Part shown: in pieces, positions 4,093 to 24,632 of the stretch
Position numbering within the stretch: position 1 is the first letter of the stretch
Layout of the letters: each line of letters opens with the position of its first letter
Source: Atractiella rhizophila
Taxonomy: Eukaryota
Assembly (NCBI GenBank): GCA_021432655.1
Contig: MU271683.1
Span: forward strand, 1-32,366
Reading direction: 5' to 3'
Length of the DNA: 32,366 bases
The notes under the pieces: generated by a model
Seen by the model: only the letters and a program-made list of their open reading frames with translations
Told to the model about the DNA's origin: nothing
The model's database searches: none
Translations under genes and position numbers: made by a program

Positions 4093-4160
4093 TGACTGCT
4101 TGGTGCCATTAAGTTGCAGGAATTGTTTCTTGTGTACTCGTATCATTGAATATTGTATCT

Positions 4161-4649
4161 TGTCAGGCTTGCCCCTATGCATTACCAAAATGCACCATCT
4201 GAAGTCACGTGACCTACTTTACCATGTCATAAGATCATGTGCTTACCCATCGCCGCTTTGCTCATGTTCGCGCTGATCGCCGCCTTCCCTATCTCACACG
4301 AATCGCCGCTCAGCAAACCTTACACGTTTTGCCGGTCTGCACCGTCTCCATTATTGCTTTATTGTCCTTTCTCACTTGTACTGCTCAGTGTGACTTATTT
4401 CCGAGTATTCCCTTTATTGCTTTCCCGATCTAGCTATCTTACATGTTTCAAGAAACGTATGTTACAGTTTATGGCAGTGCCTTCACATAGGTATATATAC
4501 ATCGAGATGTAGTGATGGTGACCTCAGAGTATTCTCTTAGGTTTACCTCCACTACAGGTTAGTCTCCCCATGCCATACTATTCTCTTAAGTTTACCTCCA
4601 CTACAGACGTATCGCCTATCGGCGACCGCACATAGTGTCAGCCCTAACA
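4161..4649 (+). mobile_element. Solo LTR of the same family as the 8765-17695 element, in opposite orientation
   Basis: TGTCAGGCTTGCCCC...GCCCTAACA is the reverse complement of the LTRs at 8765-9254 and 17208-17695, with many CpG transitions. Flanks TATCT/CGAGG do not form a TSD. Confidence 0.9.
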
Positions 4650-5035
4650 CGAGGCAATGATGGCAGTATCTTTTGGACTCTTTTGGACTATAACTACTAC
4701 CATGTTAGTTCCTTAGCCCCCCTTCAGATCGCATACTATCCTGTTCCAACATATTCCGCACTTTGGTGATACATAAACTGAGGGTCTCTCAGTGTTCTTC
4801 TTGGATTGCTTCCCAATAGTGCCAGTAGTTTCCTAAGCCTTCCCATATTCTGTGCAGATCCAACCGAATTGAGAGTGTAAGTCTCAATATCTTGTTCAAC
4901 TCTCCTTTTGACGTACCCCATCCCGTCCGTATATACTATCACATGACAATCATACGCCAAGGACAGACACGCGCGGGACAAACGACACATTTCACTTCAA
5001 CAACCATGTTTTTTAATTCAATCGGAACAAGGAAA

Positions 5036-5527
5036 TGTAGACAAAGGCTAATTTAAGATAGAATAAGGACCACTAGAGAACTCCATCTTACCCTTAAATA
5101 AGAAGACAATGGCGATTGGACAAGATAGAAAATGTGGGCAAGATAAAAGAAAATAGGGCAACATAGGATTTAGGGCAGGATGTAGGAGATCAGAGGATGA
5201 GGGGGGAAAGGAGGTGGAGTTAGGTGGGATGCTAAAGGAAGAGGAAAGCTATAAAAAGGGAGAGTTTAGAGGGAAATATCATTCCTTACTCGTGCTATGA
5301 GCATCCTACACTGTCGTTTGACTGCTTACTTATTTCTCTCGCCCTCACGTGCTTGCTTTAGGTACTTTGGGTCAATTATAGTGTTGCAAAGCGTGTTTTT
5401 TTCATTACAAACACTAGTTTACTATCCTAGTCCTCTTTCGCTAAGCTGCTCAGGTATGTGCCCACCAAAAGTTTATTCCCAAATTCGAACTTTCCCTCTA
5501 GTCCGGGATAAGTGACTTCACTTTACA
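5036..5527 (+). mobile_element. Possible solo LTR of an unrelated family
   Basis: TGTAGA...TTTACA termini, about 490 bp, purine-rich first half, TATAAAA near 5250, internal inverted repeat TAGAGGGAAA/TTTCCCTCTA. No TSD and no second copy in the window. Confidence 0.25.
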
Positions 5528-5529
5528 TC

Positions 5530-8200
5530 AGCTCCTGATCAACAGCCAGCCAGCAATCAAGCATCAAATATCTCTTACCATTTGAATATATCCCAATCCA
5601 CCTCTAGTGGCCAGCCTCTCTTTATCCCTTCTGGTATCAAAGACCTAATGCTCGGTGATCAAAGCAGAACTGAGCATGCTTCCCCAATGCCAGCACCATA
5701 TGATTGGGATTTTTCATAGTTTCCTTCCTTTTGGCTACTTTGTCCATCGTCAGTACTTTTTGGCAAACAAGTCTATAGTCACTTTCCAAAGTCACATAGA
5801 TACAACTCACTCCACAGCAGGTTCTTCAGAGATACTCACATCATTCTGACCCTCTTCATCCACCTCTGGAGAAGTTCCAGCTTCTCCATTATCTTTCTAG
5901 AATGAGTAAGAAGCCCCTTCTCCAGACCCAATAGGCCACGAGCTGACAAGCAATGATGCACATTCTAGACCTGGATGTCTGCATTCAAGAAATTTGGGTG
6001 TAAGTCTCTACATGACATGTACTCTAGGAGAAGCTCACCCTGTCAGCTCTTCTGAGCATATTACCAATATGTCTGTTAAATCTGACCAAACACCTGGTCC
6101 ATCACTGAATGCCAAAGCAGCAAACTTCAATGAAACCTCTTACCTAACCTGCAAGTCACAAACCAAAATTTGTCCACATGTCATGCCAATGACTACATGT
6201 TGAATGGCCCCCAGAATATCAATCCTACACGGCTCCTCCTCTTTTGCCCCATTCAACACCTCCTTTGTCGACACTCTTGAAGAAGCATCGATCCATTTTG
6301 TCCAAACCTCTCCCAAACCTCCACTATATTTCACCAGACTCCTCTTAAGCAATAAATACCTTTGCTCAGACTGCTCCTTCTTTTTCCCCTTTCAGTTAGC
6401 AGCCTTCAGTTGAGGAAATGGATTTGTGTTAGAGGAGGGGGCAGAGTATGTTGCTGCTTGAGGCATAAGGAGGTTTGGCAGTAGGGCAGGGACAGATCGA
6501 CAGGTTATATTGCCCATGAGTCCGAGGGTAGGAGCAATGAAATTGTCGAGAACAGAATGAAATAGAGTGTGAACCCAGTGAAATATGTATATGTTTTAGA
6601 GGAAGTTATAACGTTCCATTATAAGTCAACATATTGCCATCTCTTTACTCACAATGAAGGACGTGTGCAAAGGAGTCTGTTGACATCGACTCAAGGCGAT
6701 CTACCGCATTGTCCACAAGACTGAACATCATAATGGAGGGAAGGCCGACTAAGATCTCTTGTCACGTACCAATATCATAATGTTTGAGGTAAGAATTCTT
6801 ACAGTAATGAGCAAGCAAACACAGTCTACCATCAGTGGCTTTAGAACAAAATCCTGAGCACAGACCAATGAAAAACTGATCCTTTAATGACAAGTTTCGT
6901 CAAGTCCACACATCATACAAATCTCACCACTTTCTCTGTCCACTCCAAATCTCCCAAACTGGCCCCAAGTCTGCCTATACATGCCAATAATTCCTGGCCA
7001 GAGTCTTCTTCAGCTTCCATCCAGTCTGTATTTGGTAACAGAGTGCTCTGCTGTGAACCCAGCAAAGGATGGAAGAGTGAGAGAAGGTATCGAAGACATT
7101 CCTGAGATTCTGATGAACTAAGGGATTGCAGGAGTAAGAGAAGGCATCGAAGACGTTCCTGGAAATCTGATGATCTAAGGGATTGCAGTCAATCCACAAA
7201 CTCCACCTCTTCTCGACGCAATCTCAGGCATTTCATTTGAATATTCACAGTGGCCCCGTTCGTGGGCAATTCTGCCATTGTGTCACCGCAAGTCTGCCAT
7301 GCATGGAAGAAAAAGCAGCTCCTGATCCTCTGAGGACTTGGATATCTCGCTGTTGTCCTTGTCCTCTGTTGTGTCACAGTTGTTGTTATTATCGTCCATA
7401 TCCTCATTTCCTATATATTCGTCATCTGATCGCAGAAAGTGATCACACCTATCTTTATCAGCTACTTCGGCCTCAACAACATCTTCCCCATCACCAAATC
7501 TGTCCTCATCTGTGTCCATAGAGTCCTCATCCATCAGCTCCTTGTCTGTGCCTCTCAATTGAGCTATTTCCACCACATTAGTCATCCCATCCCTCATCTG
7601 AGCTATAGCACCTTCTAACCCAACCCTATCATCCAGTCCTGCTACCTCTTTCTCCACTTCATAGGTTTCCCCTTCTGCAAGCCATACTCCCAACCCCTTG
7701 ACTTTTTTACCCATCAATTCCTTACTTGCACTACTCGAGATTCCAGGCAGAGACACTCCAGGCGCCACACCATCCAACAAGGCCGCTGGTGCGTGTTCAT
7801 CAACACTCTCTATACCTAAGTCTCCATCTCCACCTGTGGATATAGACCGTCCTCCCTAGTTTCTTCATCTCCTCTCTCCATAATGTTGGCCATGATGTTA
7901 TCTGGAGCTGGTGTCATAGACTTTATCAGCAAGTTGTTCGAAATGTTGAACAACATGGAAGACTGACCTTAATCCATTTGATAACCTACTTGGGACTATA
8001 TTTTAATTGTCGCTCCCACAAAGCTATCAATGGAGGCTTCCAGTGTACTTAGCAATAACATATCCACATTGTTTGGGGCCTTCAACATATACAAGGCTTC
8101 ATCTAGAAGGCTTAGGCTGTAAGTGAGGTAAGTTGGAAAAGTTAGAATTTAGACATGTAATCGAACAAGGCCATACCTGAGTAGAAGAGGTCTGCTCTTC
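5530..8200 (-). pseudogene. Degenerate CpG-depleted coding or repeat relic, including acidic ORF 7283-7780
   Basis: Broken minus-strand reading frames and scarce CG dinucleotides compared with neighbouring genes; no recognisable domain. Confidence 0.35.
7081..7188. repeat. Imperfect tandem duplication, about 57 bp x2
   Basis: gagaaggtatcgaagacattcctgagattctgatgaactaagggattgcag recurs as gagaaggcatcgaagacgttcctggaaatctgatgatctaagggattgcag. Confidence 0.8.
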
Positions 8201-8214
8201 ATCTCCTCATGAGG

Positions 8215-8545
8215 GACTATTTTTTAAAGAATTCTTTAAAAAAATTAAAAAATATGAATTTTATATATATGTCCTTATGAGATAAGAAATAAAAAATATG
8301 AGAAAAGAAATTATATAATTTATATATATTTATTACAAATGAATAAATAAATAATAAATAAATGAAATAAAATTAATAAAAGAAATAAAAAGAAATATAA
8401 CATAAAAAATATGAAAAACAACACAAAAATAATGATGAAAATTATGAGAAAAGAAATTATATTTTTCTCGAATTATTTTCTCAAAGATGTAAAATCTGTA
8501 TCTATAAATAAAAGATAATAAATAATTTATAATACATAAACATGA
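8215..8545. repeat. AT-rich low-complexity tract with (AAAT)n and TA runs
   Basis: Almost entirely A/T, e.g. aataaataaataataaataaatgaaataaaattaataaaag. Confidence 0.85.
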
Positions 8546-8764
8546 TAATGCGTAAAGTTCTGCTGAAGGAGAAAGAGATGGAAGAAATTGAGACCAAGTG
8601 GTGGTAGTTTGCAAGCATATTGTAGAGGTAGGAGTAGAGACTGAATCTTGAAGGCGCAGAGTTTTTACTGCATTGAAGAAGTGGGTGGAAAATATTTCGA
8701 GGCAGTAAAACCAAGGCTCGACTTATAAACAGACAAGGTAGTGAAAGTGCAGTCAGGATACCCC

Positions 8765-9254
8765 TGTTAGGGCTAACACTATGTGCGGTCGCCGATAGGC
8801 GATGCGTCTGTAGTGGAGGTAAACCTAAGAGAATAATATGGCATGAGAAGACTAACCTATAGTGGAGGTAAACCTAAGAGAATACTCTGAGGTCACCACC
8901 ACTACATCTCGATGTATATATACATATGTAAAAGCACTGCCATAAACTGTACCATAAGTTTCTTGAAACATGTAAGATAGCTAGATCAGGAAAGCAATAA
9001 AAGGAAAGCTCGGAAATAAGACATACTGAGTAGTACAAGCGAGAAAGGACAATAAAGCAATAATTGAGACGGTGCAGACCGGCGAAATGTATAAGGTTTG
9101 CTGAGCGGCGATTCGTGTGAGACAGGGGAAGGCGTCGATCAGCGAGAACGTGAGCAAAGCGGCGATGAGCAGGCGCGTGGTCCCATGGCATGGTAAAGTG
9201 GGTCACGTGACTTCAGATGGTGCATTTCGGTAATGCGTAGGGGCAAGCCTGACA
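8765..9254 (-). repeat. 3' LTR (490 bp)
   Basis: Direct repeat of 17208-17695 (about 14 substitutions and one 2-bp indel by eye). Contains a TATA palindrome at 8912-8925 and a duplicated tagtggaggtaaacctaagagaata motif. Confidence 0.97.
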
Positions 9255-9263
9255 ACACCCCCC
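9255..9263 (-). other. Polypurine tract
   Basis: Minus strand reads GGGGGGTGT immediately before the TGTCAGG start of the 3' LTR. Confidence 0.7.
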
Positions 9264-9378
9264 AAATTTCTGACTCGTGTACGTGAGTCACGGAATTTTA
9301 AAGTTAAGGTTTGCGGCTAGCTTGGGCGAAAAAATTTTCCAGTTCTACCACCATCACCCTCCGTCTACTCTTGCAAAA

Positions 9379-10895
9379 ATGTCGACCGATGCGCAACTCT
9401 TCGACTTTGTTCTGGCTAACAAGGATAGGAAGGAGAGCACCATTTTCTGGGACGTGGAGAAAGCGAAGGAGGTGAACTTCGGGCGTTTCGCCGATGTGTT
9501 GGAGTGGGGGAAAAGGTGCTACCCTCTGTATGTCAAATTTTGTGATGAAGTGCAGGCAGAGGTGAGTTTTCTTGTCTCATATATTTTGTGTGGTAACTCG
9601 TCGGCGATGGGAAGGTGCGAATGGCTTATGAGGCTGCCAAAGGTTTCGGTGATGGACGGGTTTTGTCATTTCCTCTGCATATGCCTGTGGAAGGCGTGCA
9701 GGCGTTGCGTGATGAACTTCGTCTTTGGGCCGAACAAGCGGCGCTCGTGGAGGAGGAAGCGGTGAGACTCGGGTTTCAGCCCTCCGAGTCGGCGAATGGC
9801 GACCCTGTTTTGCGGAGGAAAGAACGAGAGCTTTTCTTGTCCGACACGAAAAAACGCTTGGCGAAGGAAGAAGAGGAACGCAAACGGGTGGCGCTTGAAA
9901 ATAAACGACGAGCGGCGGAAGAAAATTTGCGTGCTCAAAAGTCGATTTCGGCGGTGAAAGGACCCGAGGTTGGGGTTGTGAGGACTCTATCTGACCATCT
10001 GGTTACTGCGACAACCTTTGTTCTGCCTGCAGCGTTGGGGGATCGAAATCCGTTCGCCGGTGCGCCGGTCGCCGAATTCCTAGTGCGCGACGGAAAAGTG
10101 CGAATCGGCGACAAGGAATTGGATGCGGCGAAATATCGTTACTTCTGGCCAGGTACCCGTGAGGCTTATTCTCATGCTGCGGCGAACATCAATCTGGGTG
10201 AATTGGAACTCGAATTGGTTATCATGACTCCTCGGGCGAACCCGCGCATCCTCCCTACGTTAACGAGCATCGGAACGCAGCGATGTAGTAATTGTACTGG
10301 AAAAATTCGAGCGGCGCCTGTCAAAGCGGCGAAAAAGAAGGCTAAGGCCGACAACGAATCTCAAGTGTGTGACTTCTCCGCTGGGTATGTTGCAACCGCG
10401 TTCGGTCGGGTTTGTTCGCGTTGTCACAGTTCGCGAAAGAGGTGTGAGGTCTTGCCTTTGGGTTATTTGCGGGAACTCTCTATGCTGGTCGTGATGTCGA
10501 CTACCTTCCATCCTAAACGCATAGGCGACGGGAGAAAACGTCCGTCAGCTTTCGCCGAGAGCAATTATGAGAATGTGTCGGACGCCGACGAGGACTCTCC
10601 CTCGCATTCTATGCTGAGCGCCGCCCGGTTGTACTCCGAAGCTTTCAGCATGGATTTCGCACGCACGATGCTCGAGGCCGCCAGGTTAAATGCGCAAGCG
10701 GCGGCGGATGCTCTTAAGGCCGCCGAGTTGCAAATGGAATTGTTTAAAAGGAGGCAGGATGAACGTGTTGCGGAGGATGGGGCCAGTGAGGGTTCTGTGC
10801 TGGAAGGTGTGATAGCCGATGTGACTGGTAGGGTGAGTTCATCTGTTTTTTCGGCGATCCGTCTGATTCTCCAGATGTTTGTTTAGGCATCGTAG
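9379..10895 (+). CDS. Spliced antisense accessory gene of the retrotransposon: coiled-coil plus variant Zn(II)2Cys6-like protein, about 469 aa
   Basis: ATG at 9379. Exon 1 is 9379-9561; intron 9562-9614 (GTGAGT..GTAAC..AAG, phase 0); exon 2 is 9615-10832; probable intron 10833-10886 (GTGAGT..CTGAT..TAG), then GCA TCG TAG. Motif CX2CX24CX14CX2CX6C at 10284-10445; E/K/R-rich helices on both sides. Confidence 0.8.
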
Positions 10896-11574
10896 GGCAC
10901 CTAACTCGTCGCCAGCTGTACAAAAGTCGTCGCATCGGCGAAATCGAGTTCCGACTCGGCGACTTGAAACCTTCGTTGGCTCAGGAGGCTTATGATAATT
11001 CCAATTTCGATGTGTATTCTGATTCTGTTTCGAGCAGTAGTGATAGTGAGGAATCTATTCGGAGCGGCGATTTTGAGCTTTGAAATGTATGTTTTGTGAC
11101 TCCGTATTAGCGGCGAATTGCCGGGCGGCGACAAGTGTAAATCATGTTGTGGTGGCATAAGGCATTGTGGTGAGTGGGGAGATCAATGGCAAAGTGAGTG
11201 ATGTGGGACTCACACTCCCCTGTCTAGGGGAGGACCCTCAGGCGTTCCTCCCACTAGCTACCCAAGCTTATTATGGAGCTCGCAACCAAATAGGCCTGGG
11301 CCACGCGTTCGTGGACACAACGCGCAGTATAACATATCGGCGGTTTGCATGTTCATCGCCGGTCTGTTTCCTTGTGGGATAGTGTGTTGTCGAGCGAACA
11401 AATATGGGAAACAAAAGGATAAAAGCAAAAAATAGAACACCATAAACATCAAAACCAGAACAGGGCGTGAGATGAGAGGGGGCGTTGTGTACCTCGCAAT
11501 TGAGGGATTTTTTGGGATTTGACCGGTGTTGTTTTCGTGCAATAAGCAACCGTTTTTGCGGAACTGGCGTGAGT

Positions 11575-11933
11575 GACTCACCAACAAACCGGTCGCCGAT
11601 CTGTCCGTTGAGGAACAGACCGGCGCCTCGCCTAGACCTATGTTCAACAATGTGACTAGGGATTCACCCAGCGAGGCATGTAGAGGAGTAGGACCTCTTA
11701 AAGTGAGGGGGAGGGGACCTCGCGATTGAGGGCAATTTTCGTAAATGCGACATTGGTGATGGTGCGAGAACGCAATGAGCATTCGTCTTTGACGGGCGAC
11801 GAATGGACTCACCAACGACCAAGTCGCCGACTTGTCCGTTGAGGAACAAGTCGGCGCCTTGCCTTGACCTAAGTATCAAAGACTAGGATTTCACCCGGCA
11901 AGGCATATAGGGGTGTTGGACCCCTTAAAGTGA
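11575..11933 (-). repeat. Two direct repeats of about 130 bp (11575-11706, 11806-11933) forming a conserved multi-stem RNA structure
   Basis: Differences between the copies are concentrated in paired positions that compensate each other (see findings). Confidence 0.8.
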
Positions 11934-14900
11934 AGAAGGCCCTTCAGCGCGTTTTCGTCGAAGGTTACGGAAACGCGCATTTGGGCGATTTTTGGCGGGT
12001 TCGGTATGGAATCGGGACGAACTGCGAGGGGATGTGCAGTGTGATAGTCTTTTATGGCATCTTGTGAGTTTTCTAGATCTGTGATGTTGATCCACTCGTC
12101 TTCAGATGGTGAATACCCTTTGTATCGAACGCGATATTTGAAAACTCTATTTCGGGTACCGAACCATTTCCCATCAACAATTTTTTCTACTTCCCATTCC
12201 TCAATTCCATTCACCAATTCCGGAGGAGGTTTGGGCAACTGGACTCTGCCCGGAATGTCGTCTTCGTTGACTTTTCGATTGCCACATAATGGATGTCGTC
12301 TTGGTTGACTTTTCGTATTAGCGTCCCACATGGAACACTGGATGTATCTTCCATGAGGATGGCAACTCGAGTTTGAAGGTTGAGGGGACCCACAACACTT
12401 GCAAAACGCGAAAAGGGCCATGCCATTTGTCGTCTAAACTTTTTGACAGGTCTCGTCGATTTGATGTTTTTCGCGCTCAACCAGACGAAATCGCCGACAT
12501 GATATTCGGGCGCCGGTGCGCGTTTTCTGTCATAATGTTTTGCCATGAGATCTGCTGCTTGCTCGAGTGCCGCTTGTGCTTCCCGGTCGGCGGTTTGCAT
12601 CTTTTCGACGAATTGCGCCGCCGCGGGAACGTCCTCGTCGGAGATGGGTTCAAAGGCCATGCGGGGATGTTGACCGCAATCGAGCGAAAATGGAGTTACG
12701 CCCGTCGCCGAACTGTACGCGATTGTTGCAGCTGCAAATTCATGCGTTGTGGCGTGCTTGCTCCAGCAATTTCATCTCTCTCCGCAGTGGCGGCATGGAG
12801 TTCGGCCCTTTTCCGAACTTAGCGATTGTTAGTGAATGCAGGGAGTCCTTCCACCCAATTATCCTGAAGGTGGTTGCAGAAAATGCGCAAATATTGTTCA
12901 ACCTCTTGGTTCATACGTTCAGTTTGACCATCAGTCTGCGGGTGATAGGCTGTCGATGGTGAACCTTTGATACCTAATAGGCGAAAAAGTGCAGATGTGA
13001 ATTTGGACACGAATTCTTTGCCTCGATCGAAAATTGCGACATCAAAGAGTCCGTGTAGCTTCCATACATGATCGCGAAAAAGTCTTGCAAGGCCTTCTGC
13101 ATCCATCGTCGAATGGGTAGGGATGAGATGGGTGCGTTTTGAAAGTCTGTCTACTATGACGAAAATCATGTCAAACCCCCCAGATTCTGGGAGTGGTCCA
13201 ACCAAGTCCATGCTGACAATTTGCCAGCGACGTGTGGGAATGTCATTTGGTTGCAAAAACCCGACAGGTGGGGAAGGAAAGTGTTTCGTTCTGTGGCAAG
13301 TGTGACAGGCGCCGACATAGCGGCGGACGTAGTGCGCTAAACCTGGCCACCAATAGTACCTTTTCACTAGAGCTGTCGTCGATTTTACGCCTGGATGACC
13401 GGCGATTTGCGAATCATGTAGGTCTTGCAAAATCGAGCGGCGAATTTCGTCGTCGCGGGGAATGTAGAGTTTTCCGCGAAAGTAGACAGCGCCATCGACT
13501 TCTTGCCACTCCCGTCGGCGAATTGCGTCGACTGGTTCGTCTAGGATCTCTCTCAAGGCTTTGACTACTTGTTCTTCTCGTTCAGGTACCTTTTTCACGC
13601 GTTCCAGTATACTCAACTCCGACGTTTGTCTAGTGAGCGCGACCGCGCTCCCAGTCGCGCTGATCGTGATACGATCCGTGTTGAAAAAACGTTCTGGGAG
13701 TAATACTACGTCAAAGTTATCGCAAGTCGCCGGTTTGTGATCCGGTCGCCGACTGAGCGCATCTGGTTTTGCGGAGTTCCGTCCAGGACGGTGTAAAAGT
13801 GTGAAGTTGAAGGATGCAAGTTCGGTGATCCAACGTGCCTGTCGGCGATTCAACTTCTGCGGCATTCTGAAATACTCGAGATTTTTGTGATCGGTCAGGA
13901 TCAGAAATGGCTCATCAGTACCTTGTAGGAGGTGTCTCCATTCTTGTAGTCCTCGCATAATCGCGAGCATTTCTTTGTCGTAGGTGTCGTAGTTCCTCTG
14001 GGCGGCGTCGAGCGATTTTGACACGAAACCGAGAGGATGAAACTTCCCATCTGACTTCATTTGCGACAAAACGGCGCCTGTCGCGAAATTTGACGCATCA
14101 ACTTCAAGCAAAAATCGTCCTATTTGTTCGGGATGTGCTAAAACGGGCGCCGAAGTCATGAGCCGCTTCAAAGCGGCGAACGAACGTTGCTGATCTACCC
14201 CCCAGACCCAGGAAATCTCTTTTTTGGTCAGTTCATATAGAGGTCTCACGATGTGACTAAATCTGTCACAAAAGCGGCGATAGAAATTAGCGAAACCAAG
14301 GAACATTTGGACTTCCTTCATGTTTTTCGGTTCCGGCCAATCCATCACTCCTGCAACCTTTACTGGATCCGGTTCAATCCCCCTGCTGGTAATGATCAAT
14401 CCTAGATACTCTACTTCGCTTTGACACCAGACACATTTCTGCAAATTTACGTAAAGTCCATTTTCGCGTAAAATTTGACAAACTTGTCGAACGCGTTCCC
14501 AGTGTTCTTCTTCAGTTTCTGTCGCAATTAGGATGTCGTCTATGTATATGAAGATGAACGCAGCGGCGATCATGGCGCGGAAAATAGAGTTCAGGAAAGC
14601 TTGGAAGGTCGCCGGTGAGTTGCAGAGTCCGAAATACATTACCAATGGTTCGAAAAGTCCCCGATTTGTGCGAAACGCCGCTTTGTGTTCGTCTCCTTCT
14701 TTGATACGAACGTTGTTGAACCCTTTCCTCAGATCAATCTTGCTGAAAAACTTCTTACCAGAAACCATGGAAAAGAGGTCAGCTTGAATAGGGAGTGCGG
14801 TCTTGTCTTTGACTGTGGCTTCGTTCAGCTTTCGATAATCGAAAAGGGGACGAAGTTCGGAGGAGTCTTTTTTATGCGTGAAAAAAACAGAAGCTCCATG

Positions 14901-15857
14901 TTCACCTGTGCTAGGACGTATACGACCGGCGCTTAGTTCGGCGTCAATGAACTGGTCGAGCGCCGCTTGTTCGTCTCTTTTCAAGGGGTAGACCGGGCCC
15001 GCATATGGTCGTGATTCGGGTATGAGGTTGATCGCGTGATCCCAAGGACGTCGGGGAGGAAGAGAAGTTTTGAATTTTTCGTCGTCGAAAATGTCCGCAA
15101 AATCGGCGATTTGCGTTGGTATTTCGACGACATTTTTTGGTCTCATCGCCGCTGCGTCTTTCGCCAGTTTCTGCGATTTTGTCATAGCGGCTCGTATCGA
15201 GGTAGATGATGGCGGGAATTTTTCGCGAGTGGTAGACACGTCATCTGCATTGCAACTGGTAGGGCAACGAGAGAACTCAACTTTCCCTGAGTCCCAGTCG
15301 ATCTCTGGGTTGTGGTGTCTTAGCCAGTCATGGCCTAAAATCATGTCGACAGTCCCTAACTCCGCTACAGCAAATTGCCAAACTTCATGGTGAGCGGCGA
15401 TCGAAATGGGCAAGTAAGTAACAGAATGGATGGATCCTCCTTGATTGAGGGATCCGTCGATGTTATAAACAGGTACTGGGGAGGGAAGTTGAGTGACAGG
15501 TAGGTTGTATGCCGAAACGAGTTTTGGAGAAATGAAAGAAGTAGTTGCGCCGCTGTCGACGAGCGCCGATGTGGCCTGTCGGCGATGGGAATGCGGATGG
15601 TGGAATGCGGTTCTGAGCTTCGTCTTCGAACTGACAAGGGATGCTGTTGTCGAGCGTAGGTGGACTTTGTCGTACATTTTTGCGACTTCTGCGCATCTTT
15701 GTCTCCAGGAGGGAAAACGCAATTTCGGGAATGGGGAGTCTTGTTCAGATGGGGGGAATACCGTGCTGGGCGGCATTTTGTTGGAAGTGATTTTAGATGA
15801 CATAAATGAATTGCAAGTCGGCGATGGGGACACTTCTTCCACCCACCGCCGTCCTAA
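11891..15857 (-). CDS. pol: Pol polyprotein (aspartic protease, RT, RNase H, integrase, chromodomain); frameshifted between about 12200 and 12850
   Basis: Protease LVDSGAT; RT FDYRKLN, KIDLRKGF, MYFGLCNSPATFQ, YIDD; RNase H VDAS, YDKEMLA, TDHKNL; integrase HDSQIAGHPG..CHTC, MDLVG, FDRG, HPQTDGQTER; chromodomain EEWEVEKIVD..KYRVRYKGYSPSEDEW at about 12040-12205. Confidence 0.95.
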
Positions 15858-15863
15858 AAATCC
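15781..15863 (-). promoter_or_regulatory. Putative -1 ribosomal frameshift signal (G GAU UUU plus downstream stem-loop or pseudoknot)
   Basis: Heptamer at 15857-15863 directly precedes the gag UAG and pol is in the -1 frame. Stem CGGCGGUGGG/CCCAUCGCCG starts 5 nt downstream. Confidence 0.8.
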
Positions 15864-17164
15864 TCCTCAAGATCTTTCGATTGGGTAACACTCGTTTTCG
15901 GCGACTGATCGGCGAATTGTCCAAATTGTCGTTCTTGGTGCATCATTTTCGAATCAAAATATTCTCCCTGGGCCCGAAGATATTGCTCCTTGTTCATAAT
16001 CGTTCTACACTCCCTTTCCCGGTGTCCTATCTTTTGGCATCGCCTGCAACGGGGAGGTCTAGACTTTGTCGCGTCGACTTCCATGTCATCGGGGTCTTTG
16101 GCCCTATGAGCGTGTGGAGCGGCGTTGGGTGACGGATCGGCGACCGGTGACAAGGCGGCGCTCGGTCGATACGATACGGGCGTTCTGTTCTCTCTGTGCT
16201 TTGAGGATTTTGAGTTGTCCCTTTTTGCAGAAAACGTATTTTGTGGTCCGTCTTTCGCCGATGGGATGTTTCGAAAGAAGGTTGAATGCGCAGATTCTTC
16301 CGCATCAATTCGCCGAGATTTTTCTTTCCAGTCTTCCAGCGATTTTGGGAACTCCCCTTGGGTTACTTTGAGATGTAGGGTAGGATTGAGTCCTCGTTTG
16401 AAGAAAAAGGTAAGGGCTTCATCATCAAAGTCAGCTTGATTTGCCAATTCTTCGAACTTGATGATGTAGGTTTCTAGGTTCCCCTTTTGCTGGAGGGAAG
16501 ATATTTTTGTCTGTGCAATGAGCTTGTGGTCTGTCTTGCAGAAACGCGCTTTGAACTCCGACAAAAATTGTTCCCACGCAATTTGTTCCTCATTTTCGAC
16601 AAGTCGGCGCAAAATCCCAGCGGCGAATTTTTCCGCATCTCCTTCTTTCATGTAAGAAAGGGTAAATAGGATTTTCGATTTTTCAGTCGGGAATTGACCT
16701 GGAACGGTAGAGGTGTAGACGTAAATTTCACGTAAAAATGTCGGAGCTGTGTTAGGAGCTCCTTTGAAGATTGAAGGTGGAGCGAGCTTGATTCCTGCAT
16801 ACGGTGCTACTTGGGCAGTCTGGGATATAGACGGAGGAGAATAAGTTTGAGGTATTGGGTCTGTTCGCGATAAGAAAGGAGAGGTGGTTCCACTGTCTCT
16901 AGGAGGGGGCAGTCTGGAGTCCAATAATTGCAAAATTCGATCGTTTGTGTTTTGGACGTCGGACCTCAGTTGCGCAATTTCGTTCGCATTCTGGGAGGTT
17001 TGCGCATTTTGTTGGTTGAAGCTTGATATGAGGTCTTGTTCGAGTTTTTTGAATTGCTTTTCAGTTGTGAGGTGTAGAGTTTGGAACATCCTTTCTAAGT
17101 GCTGGATGCGTTCTTCGCTCGTCGGCGGTTCGCGCGTTTCCATATCTCCCCAAATCTCCGACAT
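15854..17164 (-). CDS. gag: Gag (capsid plus CCHC zinc knuckle), 436 aa
   Basis: N-terminal coiled coil; PSIFKG..FPTEKSKILFTLSYM capsid region; LQQKGNLETYIIKF MHR-like segment; DPDDMEVD followed by CRRCQKIGHREREC (CX2CX4HX4C). Confidence 0.95.
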   Translation of the reverse strand: MSEIWGDMETREPPTSEERIQHLERMFQTLHLTTEKQFKKLEQDLISSFNQQNAQTSQNANEIAQLRSDVQNTNDRILQLLDSRLPPPRDSGTTSPFLSRTDPIPQTYSPPSISQTAQVAPYAGIKLAPPSIFKGAPNTAPTFLREIYVYTSTVPGQFPTEKSKILFTLSYMKEGDAEKFAAGILRRLVENEEQIAWEQFLSEFKARFCKTDHKLIAQTKISSLQQKGNLETYIIKFEELANQADFDDEALTFFFKRGLNPTLHLKVTQGEFPKSLEDWKEKSRRIDAEESAHSTFFRNIPSAKDGPQNTFSAKRDNSKSSKHRENRTPVSYRPSAALSPVADPSPNAAPHAHRAKDPDDMEVDATKSRPPRCRRCQKIGHRERECRTIMNKEQYLRAQGEYFDSKMMHQERQFGQFADQSPKTSVTQSKDLEEDF

Positions 17165-17195
17165 TTTTTATGTTTGGTTTCAAAATTTTAAGGAG

Positions 17196-17205
17196 AGAGT
17201 ATTCT
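17196..17205 (-). other. Self-priming primer-binding site (AGAAUACUCU)
   Basis: Lies 2 nt inside the 5' LTR boundary, lacks the TGG of tRNA-primed PBSs, and is exactly complementary to AGAGUAUUCU in the LTR (17320-17329). Confidence 0.75.
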
Positions 17206-17207
17206 TC

Positions 17208-17695
17208 TGTTAGGGCTAACACTATGTGCGGTCGCCGATAGGCGATGCGTCTGTAGTGGAGGTAAACCTAAGAATAGTATGGCATGAGAAGACTAACCTG
17301 TAGTGGAGGTAAACCTAAGAGAATACTCTGAGGTCACCACCACTACATCTCGATGTATATATACATATGTAAAAGCACTGCCATAAACTGTATCATAAGT
17401 TTCTTGAAACATGTAAGATAGCTAGATCAGGAAAGCAATAAAAGGAAAACTCGGAAATAAGACATACTGAGCAGTACAAGTGAGAAAGGACAATAAAGCA
17501 TTAATGGAGACGGTGCAGACCGGCGAAATGTATAAGGTTCGCTGAGCGGCGATTCGTGTGAGACAGGGGAAGGCGGCGATCAGCAAGAACGTGAGCAAAG
17601 CGGCGATGGGCAGGCGCGTGGTCCTATGGCATGGTAAAGTGGGTCACGTGACTTCAGATGGTGCGTTTCGGTAATGCGTAGGGGCAAGCCTGACA
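17208..17695 (-). repeat. 5' LTR (488 bp)
   Basis: TGTCAGG...CCCTAACA on the minus strand; direct repeat of 8765-9254. Confidence 0.97.
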
Positions 17696-18190
17696 CTATA
17701 GAGGTCCAGGTATTCGAGGCAAGAAGATATGTGAAGGCCTGCTGCGCCTGAAGCGGTCCTCCACATTGTAAACTTTGAGCCATCTGATCCTGTCACCCAT
17801 CCTCCGCAGAAAGCTCTCGATCTTCTCCTTCCTCCACTTTCTCGAACTCCATGGTTGGCTAAAGCTGACATTATCCATCCATTGTAAGCCTTCGATTGCA
17901 TTCAACACAATCTCCGCCTCCTTGACATTCCAAAAAGTGTCCATCTCCACTGTCATGACATTCTGTGAGCCAGCGATGACCTCCTTCACTTTCTCAACAT
18001 TCATTCTTTGGTAAAACCTCAGTTTGTCCTACAATGTCCAGCACCAGGATAGAGTTTCAACCACTTATATTTTGCCACCACAAAATCAGGTTCACCTCAT
18101 TAAGAAGCTGAAACAGTTCTCCAGAGCTGGCGTACTTTTGAGGAAATGGTACTATCGTTGAGGAAACTGAAAATGCAAGAGAGGCAGGCT
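17696..18190 (-). pseudogene. Truncated paralog of the LRR/RNI-like gene at the window end, cut by the LTR
   Basis: 17696-17797 aligns with 32265-32366 (tatagaggtc.agg.attcgaggc..ctttgagc..tctgatcctgtcac; LEYLDLY vs LEFLDLY). Frameshifted and stops at the LTR. Confidence 0.75.
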
Positions 18191-18193
18191 CTA

Positions 18194-18505
18194 CACTGCC
18201 ATAAACTGTAACGTATGTTTCTTGAAACACGTAAGATGGCTAGATCCGGAAAGCAATAAAGGGAATACTCGGAAACAAGATATACTGAGTAGTACGAGTG
18301 AGAAAGGTTAATAAGGCGAAAATGGAGACGGTGCAGACCGGTGAAATGTATAAGGTTTGCTTAGTGGCAATTCGTGGGGAAAGCGGCGGACAGCGCGGGC
18401 ATGAGCAATGCGGTGATGGATAAGCAGGTGATCCTATGATGTGGCAAAGTAGGTCACGTGACTTCATATGGTGCATTTCGGTAATGTGTAGGGGCAAGCC
18501 TGACA
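18194..18505 (-). mobile_element. Truncated LTR (U3 part only) of the same family
   Basis: cactgccataaactgt...ggggcaagcctgaca matches the last 320 bp or so of the LTRs; decayed, with a small deletion. Confidence 0.9.
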
Positions 18506-18598
18506 GATATGTTGTCACCGATAGGGATGAAGTGACTGTCCTGTTTGGAGTATAATGCGATGATGGAACGGAAGGTACTGTGTAGTACGTATAGTAAG

Positions 18599-19026
18599 TG
18601 TCAGGTTTGCATCTTAAGCAAATCGACGCCCGTTCGCCGGATTGCGTCTCCTATCGCCCATTTACGTTCTCTGCGAATCGGCGCCCGTTCGCTACTCTGC
18701 GGCTCCCGTCGCCTATTTGCGCCCATTTGTGCCTGCATCACCTCTTAGCCCTTTGTGTCTATTCTCCTCTTATTAACTCCCGCGTAATCCCACTGTCACT
18801 TCCCCCTTTTAGTTCTCTTATGTGTTTCATCTGCTCTCCTCTACACTCTGTGGCAGTGTTATTCCACTTGTATATATAGATCAGAGGGTAGTGGAGGTGA
18901 CCTTAGAATATTCTCTTAGGTTTATCTCCACTACAGGTTAGTCTTCATGTCATATCATGCACTTAGGTTTATCTCCACTACAGACGCATCACCCATTGGC
19001 GACCACATATAGTGTCAGCCCTAACA
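18599..19026 (+). mobile_element. Solo LTR of a related subfamily with 5-bp TSD GTAAG
   Basis: TGTCAGG...GCCCTAACA flanked by GTAAG at 18594-18598 and 19027-19031. The last 140 bp or so match R/U5 of the main family; U3 differs. Confidence 0.9.
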
Positions 19027-19099
19027 GTAAGGTAACTGTTGCTATGTTGTGCATTCAATGGTCTCTCTTCAGGTTTTCAATCATCCCCTCCCAAGCAAC

Positions 19100-19370
19100 T
19101 GTTAGGGCTGACATATAAGGCTATCAAGTAGGGGGCTGCCAAGTAGAGTGGATATCTTAAGAGAACCAATCTGGATATCTCGCTCCATTGGCAGGTGTAT
19201 TTATACACAGATAGCCACAAATTTCAGAATGTTCCAGCATACTTCACACCGAACTTTGCAGGGCTGGGTTAGTGTTGACATAGGGAAGGCTTAGTGCGGC
19301 TGTAGTGCAAATGTTAGAGCTGGTTCTCCTTGTGAGCAAACTAAGGCAAACTACAGGCAAACCTGCTATT
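19100..19370 (-). mobile_element. Possible diverged LTR fragment of a further subfamily
   Basis: Begins tgttagggctgaca (same U5 terminus) and has cttaagagaa and a gtgtatttatacac TATA-like palindrome in the same order. The other end is not defined. Confidence 0.35.
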
Positions 19371-21793
19371 GTGTTTAAGATCGGCTGAGGGGCTGGCTAA
19401 GGGGCTTTAAGGACCATCCAAAATAGAGAAGACCCAGAGGACTACAACAAAACAGGACTAAACAGTTCTTGAAATCAGAAAGGATCTCTTATTCTGTGAT
19501 TCCTTCCTTCCCTGCTAGAAGGGGTTAAAATATAGCAAATACAGCTTCCCAAGCATTTCAAAACCTATTAATTGAGAACTGAAGCGGTACTGAAGTCGAA
19601 AACGAGCCAACAAAGAGAAGAGCCAGTGAGCACAACGAACTTGGCAAAGTTCCAAGGCAATCCACATCACGTGAAGACTCTGAAGAGGACTAAGTGCCAC
19701 CAACTGGACAACGGAGCAGAACCGAGACGCCCACCCCAACACCCCAACGGTCACGAGTTCGAACTCTCCCTTGCTCTTAACATCCTCCCATCATCATCAA
19801 CATCTCCTCCCCTTTCGTTGCTTCCCACAACACCTCTTTTCTCTTCTTCGTCTCTGCCACGTCGTCGCCTAAAATCAATCCACATGAATCAAATACATGT
19901 TGTGGCAAGCATGTACTTCTCAAAGTAAGCTACTCATGTTGTTCAATTGCTGCCAGTCATTTAGACAAAGTTGGTGAACAACATTTTGGCGTAGAACATC
20001 GACGCCATTCATTGGTGCTCTTTTGTTGGATCTGAGATGTATTCAGAGGAGAATGAGAAAATAAGCTTTGAGACAGACTCACTGTTTGCAGAAAGAGGTG
20101 CCTTTTCTTCTCGTTCAGGTAAACTAACATTGTCACAACGGTATCTTAGAATCGGTAATCCTCCAACCCTGTTGCGGTTCTTGACCCTCAATATCCTCTC
20201 ACGTCTTCGGCAACCAGACTTTTGTGCCCCAGCTCGCTGTCAGTTTCAATGCGAAGGGGCGTGCAGCGTTGGAAAGGGATCCTTGGATAGCGATAGAACT
20301 CGGATGGTGAGAAGGAGGTGCTGGATGGGCCCGGGACGGCGACATGAGATGAGGGGCACGGGCGGCACATCAGTGGCTGCACTGAAGTCGTCTGGTATCC
20401 CTGTCGCCTGTCTGCCCCTTCTGTCTCACTACCCCGCGCTCCTATCATGGTCTGGGATCCATTTGCGATGGCCAGGAGTGACAGACAGTGTAAGAACCGC
20501 TGGAAGGTGAAGTGGAGGCAGAGATATAGCTAGGAGGGTGACAGAAAGTGTAGGACACGTCCTACATCGATCCTCGGCCCCCTCTGTCACCTCTGTCCCC
20601 CCCTTTCGGTGACGACCAGAAACGGGGGCGAGGGAGCAAAGAACCGTTGGCTTGTGTAGTAAGTACCTTTATACCTGGAGACGATATGGGTAGGAAGGGA
20701 AGCCCAATTGCGGCCAGAATACGAAGGAAGGCGGAGAGATTGGCGGAACCGGAAAGGGAAGGGATGACACTGGATGACGGGGAGGAACAGGAGGTGGAGC
20801 AAGAGAGTAATCGACACAAATGAGGTTGCGAATGATGTCACGGTGCACGGGAAGAGGCGTGGGAGGTCTTCTGGCCGCCCCTGCCACCTCTCTGCCCCTA
20901 CATCTCCTCTGCTCTCCGTTTCACCGCCCGAACTCTCCGTGCCCTCCGCAATCACTATCTCATGGCCAGGTTGGGAGAAGGTGCAGCACTGGCAACAGGT
21001 GGAGTGTAAGTATATGTGTAGCCTATACAAGGACCTAATAGTGCAATCTATAAATTATTTGCATTGTATCTAAGCAATCCCTGGAACACTAGAAGTGCAC
21101 TGATTTTGCGTACTAGCATGACACTGAGAATGCACTAACTGTGCACTGCAAAGTGCGAAATTATCTTCATTCAAAAATCACCAGCCAGGCACTGAAGGCA
21201 CTAAGTGTCGACTGCTGCGGAGCCAAAAATCGTCCCTAAACTGATCTAACTCTGCACTGTTTTGGGTGATGGTGCACTGATAGTGCATTGAGTGACTACA
21301 GCTGCACTAGGTCCGCCTGCAAAGTTCCAGGGCTTCACAGTTAACTCTATTTACCACATGCCTGATAAAACTTTCTAGACCATTTGTCACATATTCCAGA
21401 ATATGAGTCATACTCCATGAGCAAACCCTGACAGTAACCTATCTGGTATGATCAATACTTGTCATCTTCATCTCACTGAATTCTTTCCAGAGATTCTGCT
21501 CTTCAAACTCTGTTCACACCCCTTAGATTAGTGTATCTAGTTTCAGTGTTTTAGATATGTTATCTTTATGCCTTATGCTCTGTCCTCAGGCATATCATGT
21601 TTTACTATTATCATTCTGGCCTGGACTTCACTTCAGCTCCTGAAGTTGTTTCAGCTTCCAAGCTCTTGTAACAGAAGTAGACCAAAAACATGTGTGAAAT
21701 TAACAGGAAGTGTGGAAACATAGGTAAGATCTGAGAGCTAGCCATGAAAAACTTGTAGAGGCATATTGGCACAAATGGAGGCAATTACAGGAC

Positions 21794-24452
21794 TCATTCA
21801 GAAGCTGATTCCATGACAAAATGAGGTGGGCTGAGATTTATCTCGCTCTCCCCGGCAGCATGTGAAGATCTTTGATCACTCCTCTTGGGCACTTTGCTCC
21901 ACCAGTCCAGGGTTGTCCACTCAACAATGCCTTTATCGTCTCCCTCAGCTGTCTCCAGATTAAGATTGTCGAGTAACTCGATGTGGTCCCTGAGATTCCC
22001 CCTTTTTTCAGGCTCGACCTCTAAACCCACAACCACTATGGCATATATGCTCTGCGGTAAAATGTTATCTGTGTTGTTAGATGAAGTGAGTCCTGTTCTC
22101 TGCAAAACATCCTCAGGTACTGGTGCAGGACACAGTTTCTTTCGTTTCTCAAGTATAAAGCAGGCTGTTACTGCGAATGCAAAGATATCCGATGCAAACG
22201 TCCAGGTTGGTGTTCTTGTGCAGATTTCCGGAGCATGCCACCATTGATAATGAGGAACGCTGGCTCTGAACGATGTTGCAGCCTCATCAACAGTCTGCCC
22301 TTCGCCAAAGTCAATTAAGAGTGCCGTATCTTCTGAATCATAACCATCTGGCTGATACAAGAATGTGTTTTGGGTCACCATGATATTATTCAGGTGAAGG
22401 TCCCTACAACAATTTGATCCAAAGTTATGCTAGTCCTGAAAGGTACAAACCTGTGAATGATGCCTCGTTTGTGCAGTGAGTGGAGACCATTGGCAATGCT
22501 ACTTAGCATACCAATCACCAGACTCCAAGATTGATGGAACGACGTATGGGGCAGCTTCTCCTCTATGAAATCCATTATGCGACCTGCATTGGCGAACTGT
22601 GAGACAAGGACTTGGGTCTCACCAGCTGCTGATAATGAGGCAGAGGTATTTGGTAGGGTGACACTGGAAATGCCAAAGAACTCGGCTGTACCAACTGCTG
22701 AACTGCCGACCCCAATGTTCATACGCAACTGGGAGCTGATGTAAGCCCTTCCCATCGTCCTAGAGAATTGCACATGCTTACCTCTTGTTGGAACTTTAAC
22801 TCGTCCTGCAAACTGTTTCCCAGGTTCGACTGGAGGACTTTAACAATAACCCCAACTTCCTTTTTCCCCTGACCTCTAGACAACAGGATGCTGCCTGGCC
22901 TCATCCAGGTCGCTCTGTACACCGTCCCATTCTTGCCCTTGCCTATGTAGTTCCAATCAATTTTCAATTGGCACGACGGTATGTGCCTGAGAGGATGAGT
23001 CAACATTCGATCAGAAGCCTGGTATTGTTGATATTCCGGTGCTGGCTGCATGCTCGCCTCGGTCACGTTTCGAAAATATTCCAGGGCCCCAATATCGGTC
23101 TCGAATTGTTGAAGATTTCGGTACTGCATCCCAGGGATAGTTTCAAGAAGAAGAAGCTCGCCATTCAAAGAGTTCCAAGTAAGACAGGAATCCGTCTGAT
23201 ATTGGTGGTTAGAGTAACTACAAGTTCAAGTTGTCAGTGCTCACCCAAGCTTTCCAAAAGTCTGATTGCCTGTCAAAGAGTCTGGTATCTCCTACAGGCC
23301 TCATGGCAAACACCACCTTCCCATTTGGACTAAAATGGCCAGGAAAGTACTTATTATTGTCCAGACAGCACCCAAACACCTCATCCTCTGTATGGAGCAT
23401 GTGCCCAGTAAATGGAGTCACCATGCCAGGATCCCACTCAACCCAGCGTAGATCTTTCGCTTTAAGATTGAGGTGGTCCATATATGGAATGTTCATGGCT
23501 GAGGTGATTTGTTTGATCTGATCTATTGGTACCTCATGCAGATCGTCAGGAGATAGAATGCCAATACTATGTTTTATAGCCTGTGTCACCAGTGACCAGT
23601 CTCAGATCGGTGCAGGATGGTTAGTACAATTTTACAAACCTCTTGCATGGTACTAGCCCTTGTGGACCGTTCATGATCGCGGTAAACAGATTCCACAATG
23701 TCTAATACTGACCCACCCATCCCCTGATGCCATTGATTGATCTGATCTGTTGTTGGTAACTCGCAGAGATTGTCAGGAGATAGAATGCCGATACGTTGCA
23801 TGATCTCTTCCACATTCTCAAATCGGACAGGATGATTACTCGGCCTGGTAGACTGGTGATAAAAACTGTAAATCGATTTGAAAATGTCGAATGTTGGACC
23901 CTTGCACAACTCCTGCTGCCACACTAGATGATCTCTTTTCCACATCCAGTGAATGAGCCTCCAGTGATCTTTGTCATCTGGGTAGATTGCAGGGTGAAGA
24001 CAATCAACCGATTCATTGGCGACTAATACAGGGAGCTCCGGATTGGCGCTCTTCACTGCATCAGAACGGAATTGGTTCTCTGCGTGGCCACGTCCGATGG
24101 CCCTCCAGTGCAAGTAGTCACCATAAGCTCGTTCGAAGCTCCCTCCGTAATCTTTCTTGACGAGATCCTGTTGCAGTTCCTCTCTCAGAGGCACGAAGAA
24201 TTTCTCCACCCAAACCCATCGCTGAAAGATGTCGTCGATGTCCAATGGCCAGGCAGTGGGTAGGGTTGCAGCAGCGGCGGGTTCAATGATTTCGCACAGG
24301 AGTTTCCTCTCGAACGCAGCCAGGGGCACAAAGAATGATTTCATGATAAGTGAACAGTCCAGTTTCTGTACGGTTTGCTCGATGGTGGCTTGCTGGTGTC
24401 GAAATGGGGGCAAAACACCATTTGGGCATCGGAACATATAAACGGCTGACAT
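21794..24452 (-). CDS. Protein kinase (TKL-like) with a long uncharacterised N-terminal region, 5 exons, about 815 aa
   Basis: ORF pieces splice across short GT-AG introns (e.g. 23581-23639, phase 0). IGKGKNGTVY, VIVK, spliced HRDLHLNN, IDFG, WHAPE and SDIFAF are all present. Confidence 0.85.
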
Positions 24453-24632
24453 GATCTAGGAGCCTTCAATGGATCAGGGTTAACAGATGCTGAGGGGTGA
24501 ACGGCAGTCGTAATTCCACCAACCTTCTCCCAAACCGTCCAGGGACCGACGCTTCTTTTAAATATCAACATTCTCGACCCTGCAAGTTGTCAGGGCCATC
24601 CTCAAACTTCTTTTAATGCTTTTAATGCAGGC

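Follow-up and report, generated by a model that had tools for sequence, protein, structure and literature searches.

Dispersed CGGCGA sites and a candidate self-recognition protein in a Ty3/gypsy retrotransposon of Atractiella rhizophila

Contig MU271683.1 of Atractiella rhizophila (assembly GCA_021432655.1) was analysed over a window of 32,366 nucleotides (positions 1 to 32,366 of the forward strand), which contains a long terminal repeat (LTR) retrotransposon at 8765-17695 with gag-pol on the minus strand. Its Pfam domains and paired LTRs identify it as a Ty3/gypsy element, and it was assigned to the chromoviruses because an open reading frame (ORF) with a chromodomain comes after gag and pol. 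An accessory gene runs antisense to gag-pol. The question raised by this locus is why a single hexamer, CGGCGA (TCGCCG on the opposite strand), recurs throughout the element, and what might read it. According to the original prediction, the word is the target of the accessory protein, supposed to be of the Zn2Cys6 type, which would act against silencing in the manner of the VANC proteins of Arabidopsis VANDAL transposons. The analysis presented below makes it likely that the word has been selected as a protein binding site on DNA, irrespective of the protein that occupies it. Such a site very probably has a function and belongs to the element alone.

The enriched word and the extended site

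The window contains 63 copies of CGGCGA/TCGCCG, whereas 100 dinucleotide shuffles gave 9.94 ± 3.03 copies (largest 18). As many as 51 of the 63 copies fall within the element (34 on the plus strand and 17 on the minus strand; 5.7 per kb). The others comprise three copies in 1-4160, four in 4161-8764 (all belonging to a relic LTR at 4160-4649), one in 17696-19030 and four in 19031-32366, and the density elsewhere in the window is 0.3-0.9 per kb. The initial estimate had been about 50 copies in the element and about 7 in the comparison DNA; we counted 51 and 7 (the latter in 17.5 kb), and the nine positions quoted as examples are all present in the match list. Counting by parts confirmed that the word is found on both strands, in several reading frames and in coding as well as non-coding DNA. 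The two LTRs carry 4 and 5 copies, the antisense gene 11 (including its intron), the spacer at 10887-11257 carries 5, gag 6 and pol 15; the internal region without the LTRs holds 42. Only the chromodomain ORF and two short spacers are free of the word, while all other parts contain 4.6-13.5 copies per kb.

For the element alone, 300 dinucleotide shuffles gave 6.1 ± 2.3 copies (largest 13) against the observed 51 (z 19.5), and the word ranked first among all strand-symmetrised 6-mers. Shuffling of dinucleotides within 500-bp blocks yielded 6.4 ± 2.5 copies (largest 15). In 1000 synonymous-codon shuffles of the four ORFs, 7.4 ± 2.5 copies were obtained (largest 15), and not one of the 1000 reached the 31 copies observed; therefore, codon usage and protein sequence are excluded as the cause. 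The claim that the enrichment would survive dinucleotide and codon shuffles was borne out in both cases. Markov models of order 1, 2 and 3 predict 6.1, 7.1 and 19.5 copies, respectively, and a model of order 4 predicts 41.3, i.e. most of the 6-mer excess is already present in the 5-mers.

The core CGGCG/CGCCG is represented by 84 copies in the element (21.1 expected). Alignment of the 84 oriented cores revealed a longer site of 15 bp, C-N2-A-[T/G]-CGGCG-A-[not G]-N2-G. Upstream of the core, C is found at -5 in 53 of the 84 copies (p 2e-14), A at -2 in 47, and T or G at -1 in 71 (A occupies this position only twice). Downstream, A is found at +5 in 51 copies and G at +9 in 44 (p 2e-8), while G is completely absent from +6. 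Chi-square p values of the flank positions range from 2e-14 to 2.6e-6, and three control CpG words showed no such flanks at -5 and +9. The central G is an axis of symmetry for the informative positions, giving roughly C-N2-A-T-CG-S-CG-A-T-N2-G; the site is therefore an imperfect 15-bp palindrome, as a dimeric protein on duplex DNA would read it. The symmetrical 7-mer TCGGCGA/TCGCCGA is present in 26 copies, 14 and 12 on the two strands.

A 15-bp weight matrix, trained on the element so that only the host counts are independent, detected 54 sites at 12 bits in the element, none in 19031-32366 (13.3 kb) and one in 1-4159. The spacing between copies fits random placement (coefficient of variation 0.94, versus 0.97 for random), with the exception of a cluster in the U3 region of the LTRs. 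Copies of the element family were compared through contigs of four sequencing runs aligned to the element; among the 40 listed of 1153 positions that differ between copies, none lies inside a copy of the 6-mer, where about 1.4 would be expected.

Three other origins of the word were rejected. Expansion of a trinucleotide (CGG)n is ruled out, as CGGCGG accounts for only 11 of the 84 cores. The same holds for islands of composition, as the block shuffles give the same expectation, and for duplication of a longer unit, as there is no information beyond 15 bp.

A different explanation is that the word acts in RNA or in replication, either as dispersed packaging or dimerisation signals read by the zinc knuckle of Gag, or as marks on the cDNA. 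Gag does have a CCHC knuckle, TCGCCG is found on the sense strand twice as often as on the other (34 versus 17), and the near-palindromic site is present in the sense RNA whatever its orientation in the DNA. The same explanation could draw on a non-palindromic subtype, GCGGCGA, which is found 17 to 1 on the plus strand (p 0.0013; internal copies 12 to 1, p ~0.01) in a subdivision made after seeing the data. Examples are the copies at 9106, 10126, 11065, 13438, 14174 and 16621 on the plus strand, versus 15146 on the minus strand; the favoured strand is the sense strand of the antisense gene. This bias may point to a directional or RNA-level component. However, the strand ratio of the cores (53 to 31) is not significant (p 0.27), the symmetry of the flanks is that of a dimer bound to duplex DNA, the sites are packed most densely in the regular U3 cluster, which is in promoter position, and the odd central base prevents perfect self-pairing. 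A role in RNA or replication is therefore considered very improbable as the main explanation of the word.

As controls we used 82 contigs from viral and metagenome collections, found with the Pol of the element as query and encoding Pols 32-52% identical to it. In the 50 control contigs of at least 3 kb, the top-ranking 6-mer had a z of 4.9-9.8 (median 6.4) and was usually of low complexity; the same formula gives 18.2 for the element in the window. CGGCGA was not enriched in any of the 50, and three control contigs with normal CpG content contained 2, 0 and 4 copies (2.4, 2.6 and 4.8 expected, respectively). The accessory protein is encoded in none of the 82. The expectation that the enrichment would be missing from chromoviruses without the accessory gene thus holds in that none of the 50 is enriched, but it holds loosely, the controls being mostly from CpG-poor genomes other than this one.

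The ratio of observed to expected CpG reaches 1.19 in the element, compared with 0.70 outside it and 0.44 for 4161-8764. Core sites make up 166 of the 636 CpGs of the element, and the ratio is still 1.03 when they are masked. The CpG positions of two relic LTRs change at only 1.7-2.2 times the rate of their other positions, and 4 of the 14 differences within the element's own LTR pair touch a CpG. The contrast between a CpG-rich element and depleted neighbouring DNA, on which the original prediction also relied, is real, but with such modest decay in the relics the case for active protection from methylation-driven decay is weak.

These figures also bear on the possibility that the word is a non-functional by-product of context-dependent mutation, repair or gene conversion, or of the preferential survival of CpGs. 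In agreement with this, the order-4 Markov expectation already includes most of the 6-mer excess, transitions dominate the differences among copies, and CpG loss destroys sites in dead LTRs. However, 5.7 copies per kb is about 12 times the random density of 0.49 per kb, and therefore survival alone cannot produce it. Moreover, the information is symmetrical out to -5 and +9, no excess is seen in host DNA of the same genome or in the 50 other chromovirus contigs, and the element is not CpG-depleted even without its sites. There is thus little to recommend a non-functional origin, and a selected binding site is the preferred reading.

The sites are also visible at the protein level. The same DNA word is read in different codons depending on the strand of the gene: as GCG-GCG-A in the antisense gene, and as TC-GCC-GCT or T-CGC-CGA in gag and pol. 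Ala-Ala is found 10 times and Arg-Arg 11 times in Pol, which amounts to about 10 pairs of each kind per 1000 residues of the aligned spans, whereas 35 homologous chromovirus Pols have means of 3.0 and 3.3 per 1000 and maxima of 6.7 and 8.0, respectively. Motif-site residues that are unlike those of the homologues include A713 (G in 50), I782 (L in 59) and I808 (L in 61). The excess of Ala-Ala and Arg-Arg pairs in Pol is a footprint left by the sites.

The LTR cluster and the candidate binder

The four sites of the U3 cluster (Table 1) are regularly spaced, although Tandem Repeats Finder does not call them a tandem repeat. In the 5' LTR the cluster lies upstream of a TATA-like stretch, TATATATACA, in element sense, and in the 3' LTR the ATG of the antisense gene follows the cluster at a distance of 214-299 bp; the cluster could therefore drive both promoters. 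The sequence GGTCACGTGACTT, which includes the palindrome CACGTG, is identical in all four alignable LTR copies (the 3' LTR, 17208-17695, 4160-4649 and 18194-18505), which are up to 18% different elsewhere. CACGTG is probably a second conserved promoter element.

Older LTRs in the window provide some insight into the history of the cluster. It is present in the LTR of 92% identity, whereas in the LTR of 82% identity (18194-18505) it has decayed, mostly by CpG-to-TpG or CpA changes. In the LTR of a variant family (18560-19030), the unalignable part again carries several GGCGA-type words. The cluster is therefore older than this copy of the element; living lineages maintain or renew it, and it decays in dead ones.

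The accessory gene is located between the chromodomain ORF and the 3' LTR and encodes a product of 484 residues; its existence had been predicted, and we found it to be a spliced gene, antisense to gag-pol. The relatives of the protein are six hypothetical proteins of A. rhizophila (57-95% identity), with none found in other species, and paralogues that have diverged to 72-89% identity retain both the ORF and the splice site. The protein has lysine- and arginine-rich stretches, as well as a cluster of six cysteines (C230, 233, 258, 273, 276 and 283 of P0001), the last three of which are spaced CX2CX6C with RKR before the final Cys and resemble half a zinc cluster. It may be described as a cysteine-rich, basic protein, possibly binding zinc and DNA. 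The accessory gene is covered by contigs to a lower depth than pol, but contig depth is a measure that cannot rank parts of the element.

The designation of this protein as a Zn2Cys6 factor had to be abandoned. The canonical spacing of that class is CX2CX6CX5-12CX2CX6-8C, and the spacing found here, CX2CX24CX14CX2CX6C, lies outside it. Each site holds only one CGG, and PF00172 gave no match at E <= 10 for P0001, P0002, P0003, P0007 or the Cys region alone. When the Cys region was used by itself, Pfam yielded only insignificant matches, and a sequence search of the PDB only chance matches, to cytochrome b562. In the ESM Atlas the best scores (0.79-0.84) were below the significance level, with a 28% share of DUF3716 in one cluster, and 594 pattern matches to the accessory protein in JGI metagenome contigs included no relative. 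A complex prediction for two copies of residues 215-429 with zinc scored 0.02, which is evidence neither way.

From these sequence patterns we infer the binding of a protein to the site, the identity of the binder and the effect of binding. The element's own protein is favoured because its gene lies downstream of the cluster, at the distance given above, because its ORF and splice site are kept, and because it has six cysteines and basic stretches. The full statement, with the antisense protein as the binder, is tentative: it is a serious possibility that falls short of being probable.

In the mechanism proposed here, selection would have spread a site of ~15 bp, nearly palindromic, over the whole retrotransposon. 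The four U3 copies would act as an upstream activating cluster, serving the sense promoter in the 5' LTR and, read the other way in the 3' LTR, the antisense accessory gene. The 70-odd further copies would have arisen in the coding and non-coding body by point substitutions, some synonymous and others changing residues to Ala-Ala or Arg-Arg. Such dense private docking sites, lacking in host DNA, would let a sequence-specific dimeric protein find this family alone, and the bound protein would keep the family transcriptionally open. The leading candidate for this role would be the antisense product of 484 residues, an orphan protein that has six clustered cysteines as well as basic stretches. 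The resulting loop would be one of self-recognition, anti-silencing or auto-activation, working like VANC/VANDAL. Taken with all its parts, i.e. a private self-recognition system in which a dimer of the orphan protein binds 50-80 copies, keeps the family open or unmethylated and activates both LTR promoters, the scheme has to be regarded as unlikely.

Several observations weigh against this scheme. The accessory protein belongs to no Pfam family at E <= 10, and a profile search of 1.84 billion representatives (E <= 0.001) returned only three sequences: two of the six A. rhizophila paralogues and one unnamed protein of 182 residues. The Cys cluster is intact in only two (P0001 and P0002) of the seven family proteins seen, and the AlphaFold2 model, based on a six-sequence alignment, has a mean predicted local distance difference test score (pLDDT) of 39.8 and consists of long helices and little else. 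One contig (run X1) joins the LTR edge at 9254 to position 11975, skipping 2720 bp including the whole antisense gene; therefore, there is at least one natural variant without the accessory gene. In Pol, the residues at motif sites are on average as conserved as the rest of the protein (0.40 versus 0.41, p 0.68). Part of the Ala/Arg excess follows from the higher G+C and Ala/Arg content of the element, although the Ala-Ala and Arg-Arg pairs are still about twice as frequent as predicted from Pol's own composition. The control contigs come from other, mostly CpG-poor genomes, and the effects of accessory gene and host are therefore confounded. Finally, the copy in the window is not pristine: its LTRs are 97% identical, its chromodomain is out of frame, and no target-site duplication (4-6 bp) is visible at the element flanks (...ACCCC and CTATA...). 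The missing duplication may be due to later recombination or mutation.

Several of these points would be accommodated if the word were bound by a host transcription factor, of the zinc-cluster or another dimeric type. The sites would then have served as an LTR enhancer and later as body-wide enhancers or chromatin openers, and the antisense protein would be unrelated to them. The evidence for a selected binding site on double-stranded DNA applies equally to such a factor, and the U3 cluster is placed where fungal upstream activating sequences sit, beside the conserved CACGTG. The lack of a recognisable DNA-binding domain in the accessory protein and the variant without its gene also fit. However, LTR retrotransposons usually carry few sites for host factors, and only in the LTR or leader, and ~75 internal copies, which also reshape Pol, are not expected from enhancer capture. 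The host DNA contains a single matrix match in 17.5 kb, which is too little DNA to judge. A host factor as the binder is considered only slightly less likely than the antisense protein, which is retained as the leading candidate.

Structure of the element and its surroundings

The features of the element and of the neighbouring LTRs are listed in Table 1. The LTRs of the pair are in direct orientation and have TG...CA ends (TGTTAGGG...CCTGACA); they differ by 14 substitutions and one 2-bp indel. Pfam matches in Pol were obtained for RVP_2 (residues 100-200), RVT_1 (331-492), RT_RNaseH (584-686), Integrase_H2C2 (806-862) and rve (879-976). Most contigs of other family copies differ from the window by indels at 12322-12436, with 1-2 nt missing relative to it. 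The window copy is therefore probably slightly damaged, which fits the frame break between integrase and chromodomain.

Table 1. Features of the retrotransposon and of related LTRs in the window (LTRs named in element sense; motif, CGGCGA/TCGCCG).
Feature	Position	Strand	Remarks
Older LTR of the same family, inverted	4160..4649	+	91-92% identical; 4 of 5 sites kept, one lost (CGGCGA>CGGCAA)
Whole element	8765..17695	-	51 CGGCGA/TCGCCG, 84 CGGCG/CGCCG cores
3' LTR, 490 bp	8765..9254	-	4 motif copies
Site cluster in 3' LTR, matching that in U3 of the 5' LTR	9080..9165	+	9080, 9106 and 9160 intact; third of four reads CGTCGA
CACGTG palindrome	9204..9209	.	inside GGTCACGTGACTT, between site cluster and LTR edge
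Polypurine tract adjoining 3' LTR	9255..9270	-	GAAATTTGGGGGG in element sense; read from sequence
Accessory gene, exon 1	9379..9561	+	61 codons, MSTDAQ...VQAE; N-terminus and splice junction as in P0003-P0005
Accessory gene, intron	9562..9614	+	53 nt, GTGAGT...AAG; one motif copy, at 9602
Accessory gene, exon 2	9615..10886	+	423 codons and stop; 9 motif copies
Six-cysteine cluster CX2CX24CX14CX2CX6C with lysine-rich insert	10284..10445	+	residues 230-283 of P0001
Non-coding spacer, densest in motif	10887..11257	.	5 copies, 13.5 per kb, all +
Chromodomain ORF	11891..12433	-	PF00385, E 4.4e-9; out of frame with pol in this copy; 0 motif copies
pol (protease, reverse transcriptase, RNase H, integrase)	12819..15866	-	15 motif copies, all three frames
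gag (capsid and one CCHC knuckle)	15854..17167	-	Pfam Retrotrans_gag, Ty3_capsid, zf-CCHC; 6 motif copies
5' LTR, 488 bp	17208..17695	-	5 motif copies
Four sites in U3	17521..17606	+	starts 17521, 17547, 17574, 17601; spacing 26-27 bp
Truncated older LTR	18194..18505	-	82-83% identical; four cluster sites decayed (CGGTGA, TGGCAA, CGGCGG, CGGTGA)
Inverted LTR of variant family	18560..19030	+	84% identical over ~190 bp, rest unalignable

Between the antisense gene and the chromodomain ORF, a further ORF (11258-11875, minus strand) has no Pfam family. It contains a 69-bp direct repeat (11575-11643 and 11806-11874; 83% identical, 231 bp apart), both copies of which include GTCGCCGA and a GGCGCC. 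The element family is represented by many contigs in two runs of one organism, and by pieces in two metagenomes. In run X2, two contigs pass from the element (at positions 10437 and 16388) directly into telomere repeats of the TTAGGG type; some copies are therefore located at chromosome ends or truncated by them.

The element is flanked by three LTRs or LTR pieces (4160-4649, 18194-18505 and 18560-19030), two of them inverted, with no matching internal sequence between them. Together with the absent target-site duplication, this arrangement suggests nested older insertions or copies that have recombined. The region of ~4.1 kb at 4650-8754 is A+T-richer and CpG-poor (G+C 0.42 and CpG ratio 0.44 for 4161-8764); it has no ORF of over 190 codons and no Pfam match, and it does not resemble the element. 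In 21794-26396, several ORFs located on both strands show weak matches to protein kinases (PK_Tyr_Ser-Thr, E 3e-7 to 7e-3) and are probably intron-split or duplicated host kinase genes. An ORF at 3187-3699 contains a CoA-binding domain.

Comparison with known systems

Short words bound by an element's own protein are best known from DNA transposons. The maize elements En/Spm (protein TnpA) and Ac (AAACGG hexamers) carry many such words containing CpG, and TnpA has been reported to counter methylation of its element. In both cases the motifs are placed within a few hundred bp of the ends, and not through the coding sequence as here. Zn2Cys6 (Gal4-type) factors use CGG half-sites, e.g. Ume6 at URS1 (TCGGCGGCT). 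The site described here contains CGG and resembles URS1 in TCGGCG; however, its symmetry is TCG-S-CGA, with one CGG triplet, and not CGG-Nx-CCG.

Antisense genes near the 3' LTR form a second group of relevant cases. HBZ of human T-cell leukaemia virus type 1 (HTLV-1) is a bZIP protein of an animal retrovirus, with an antisense regulatory role and without a dispersed cis motif. The gene found here is likewise antisense and on the 3' LTR side, but no bZIP family was found in its product (Pfam). In the available text of PMC11963269, HBZ is named as an antisense gene of the 3' LTR, and the plant elements Retand, Grande and RIRE2 are described as carrying, in the stretch from pol to the 3' LTR, an ORF that is antisense to gag-pol and has predicted DNA binding. 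The architecture of our element is the same, with the antisense ORF in the interval between pol and the 3' LTR. In contrast, the plant antisense ORFs mostly carry TRP28 (PF04195), and Retand, Grande and RIRE2 are not chromoviruses (same text of PMC11963269), whereas the accessory protein has neither TRP28 nor any other Pfam domain. No body-wide motif of these plant elements is mentioned in the available text of that paper. In fungi, the accessible portions of two reports describe a Botrytis gypsy element with an extra ORF, brtn (bioRxiv 10.1101/2021.04.13.439636), and DNA transposons carrying TET/JBP genes (PMC12730594).

In a search of largely open-access literature, we found no report of the motif, of the element or of a comparable fungal arrangement, and none of a retrotransposon with such saturation by a single site. 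To our knowledge, escape from silencing without harm to the host is understood in molecular detail for very few systems, namely VANC and perhaps TnpA of Spm, both from plant DNA transposons. If the proposed scheme is true, it would be the first anti-silencing or auto-activation system of its type from a retrotransposon as well as from a fungus, and the first in which substitutions have created sites throughout the body of the element. It would also mean that selection for recognition of the DNA along a whole element can prevail over the constraints set by protein sequence and codons. The proposal comes down to a testable pair, one 15-bp site and one orphan protein of 484 residues. If the binder is a host factor, the element would still be an unusual case of enhancer-like sites saturating coding sequence. 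The motif may also serve as a practical marker for active copies of the element family.

The VANDAL21/VANC21 pair of Arabidopsis offers the nearest parallel. According to the available text of PMC5735166, binding and methylation loss have been demonstrated for VANC, the density of the motif decides the localisation of VANC21, and the motif evolves within the family. The VANC21 motifs (YAGTATTAY) lie in one orientation in tandem arrays within non-coding DNA, and coding regions have none (same text, PMC5735166). As in that system, a transposon-encoded accessory protein is accompanied here by a short motif with a high density in its own family and a low one elsewhere, with the pairing of the two being a candidate one, and to this extent the VANC-like character suggested at the outset is plausible. 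The likeness does not extend to homology, as Pfam and the profile search revealed no sequence relationship between the accessory protein and VANC. It does not extend to the arrangement of the sites either: instead of one-orientation arrays in non-coding DNA, they are scattered by substitution over coding and non-coding parts in both orientations, only the U3 cluster being regular. Moreover, VANDAL is a DNA transposon, while the element described here is an LTR retrotransposon of a basidiomycete. The arrangement in A. rhizophila is thus closest in function to VANDAL/VANC, but it is not a member of that system.

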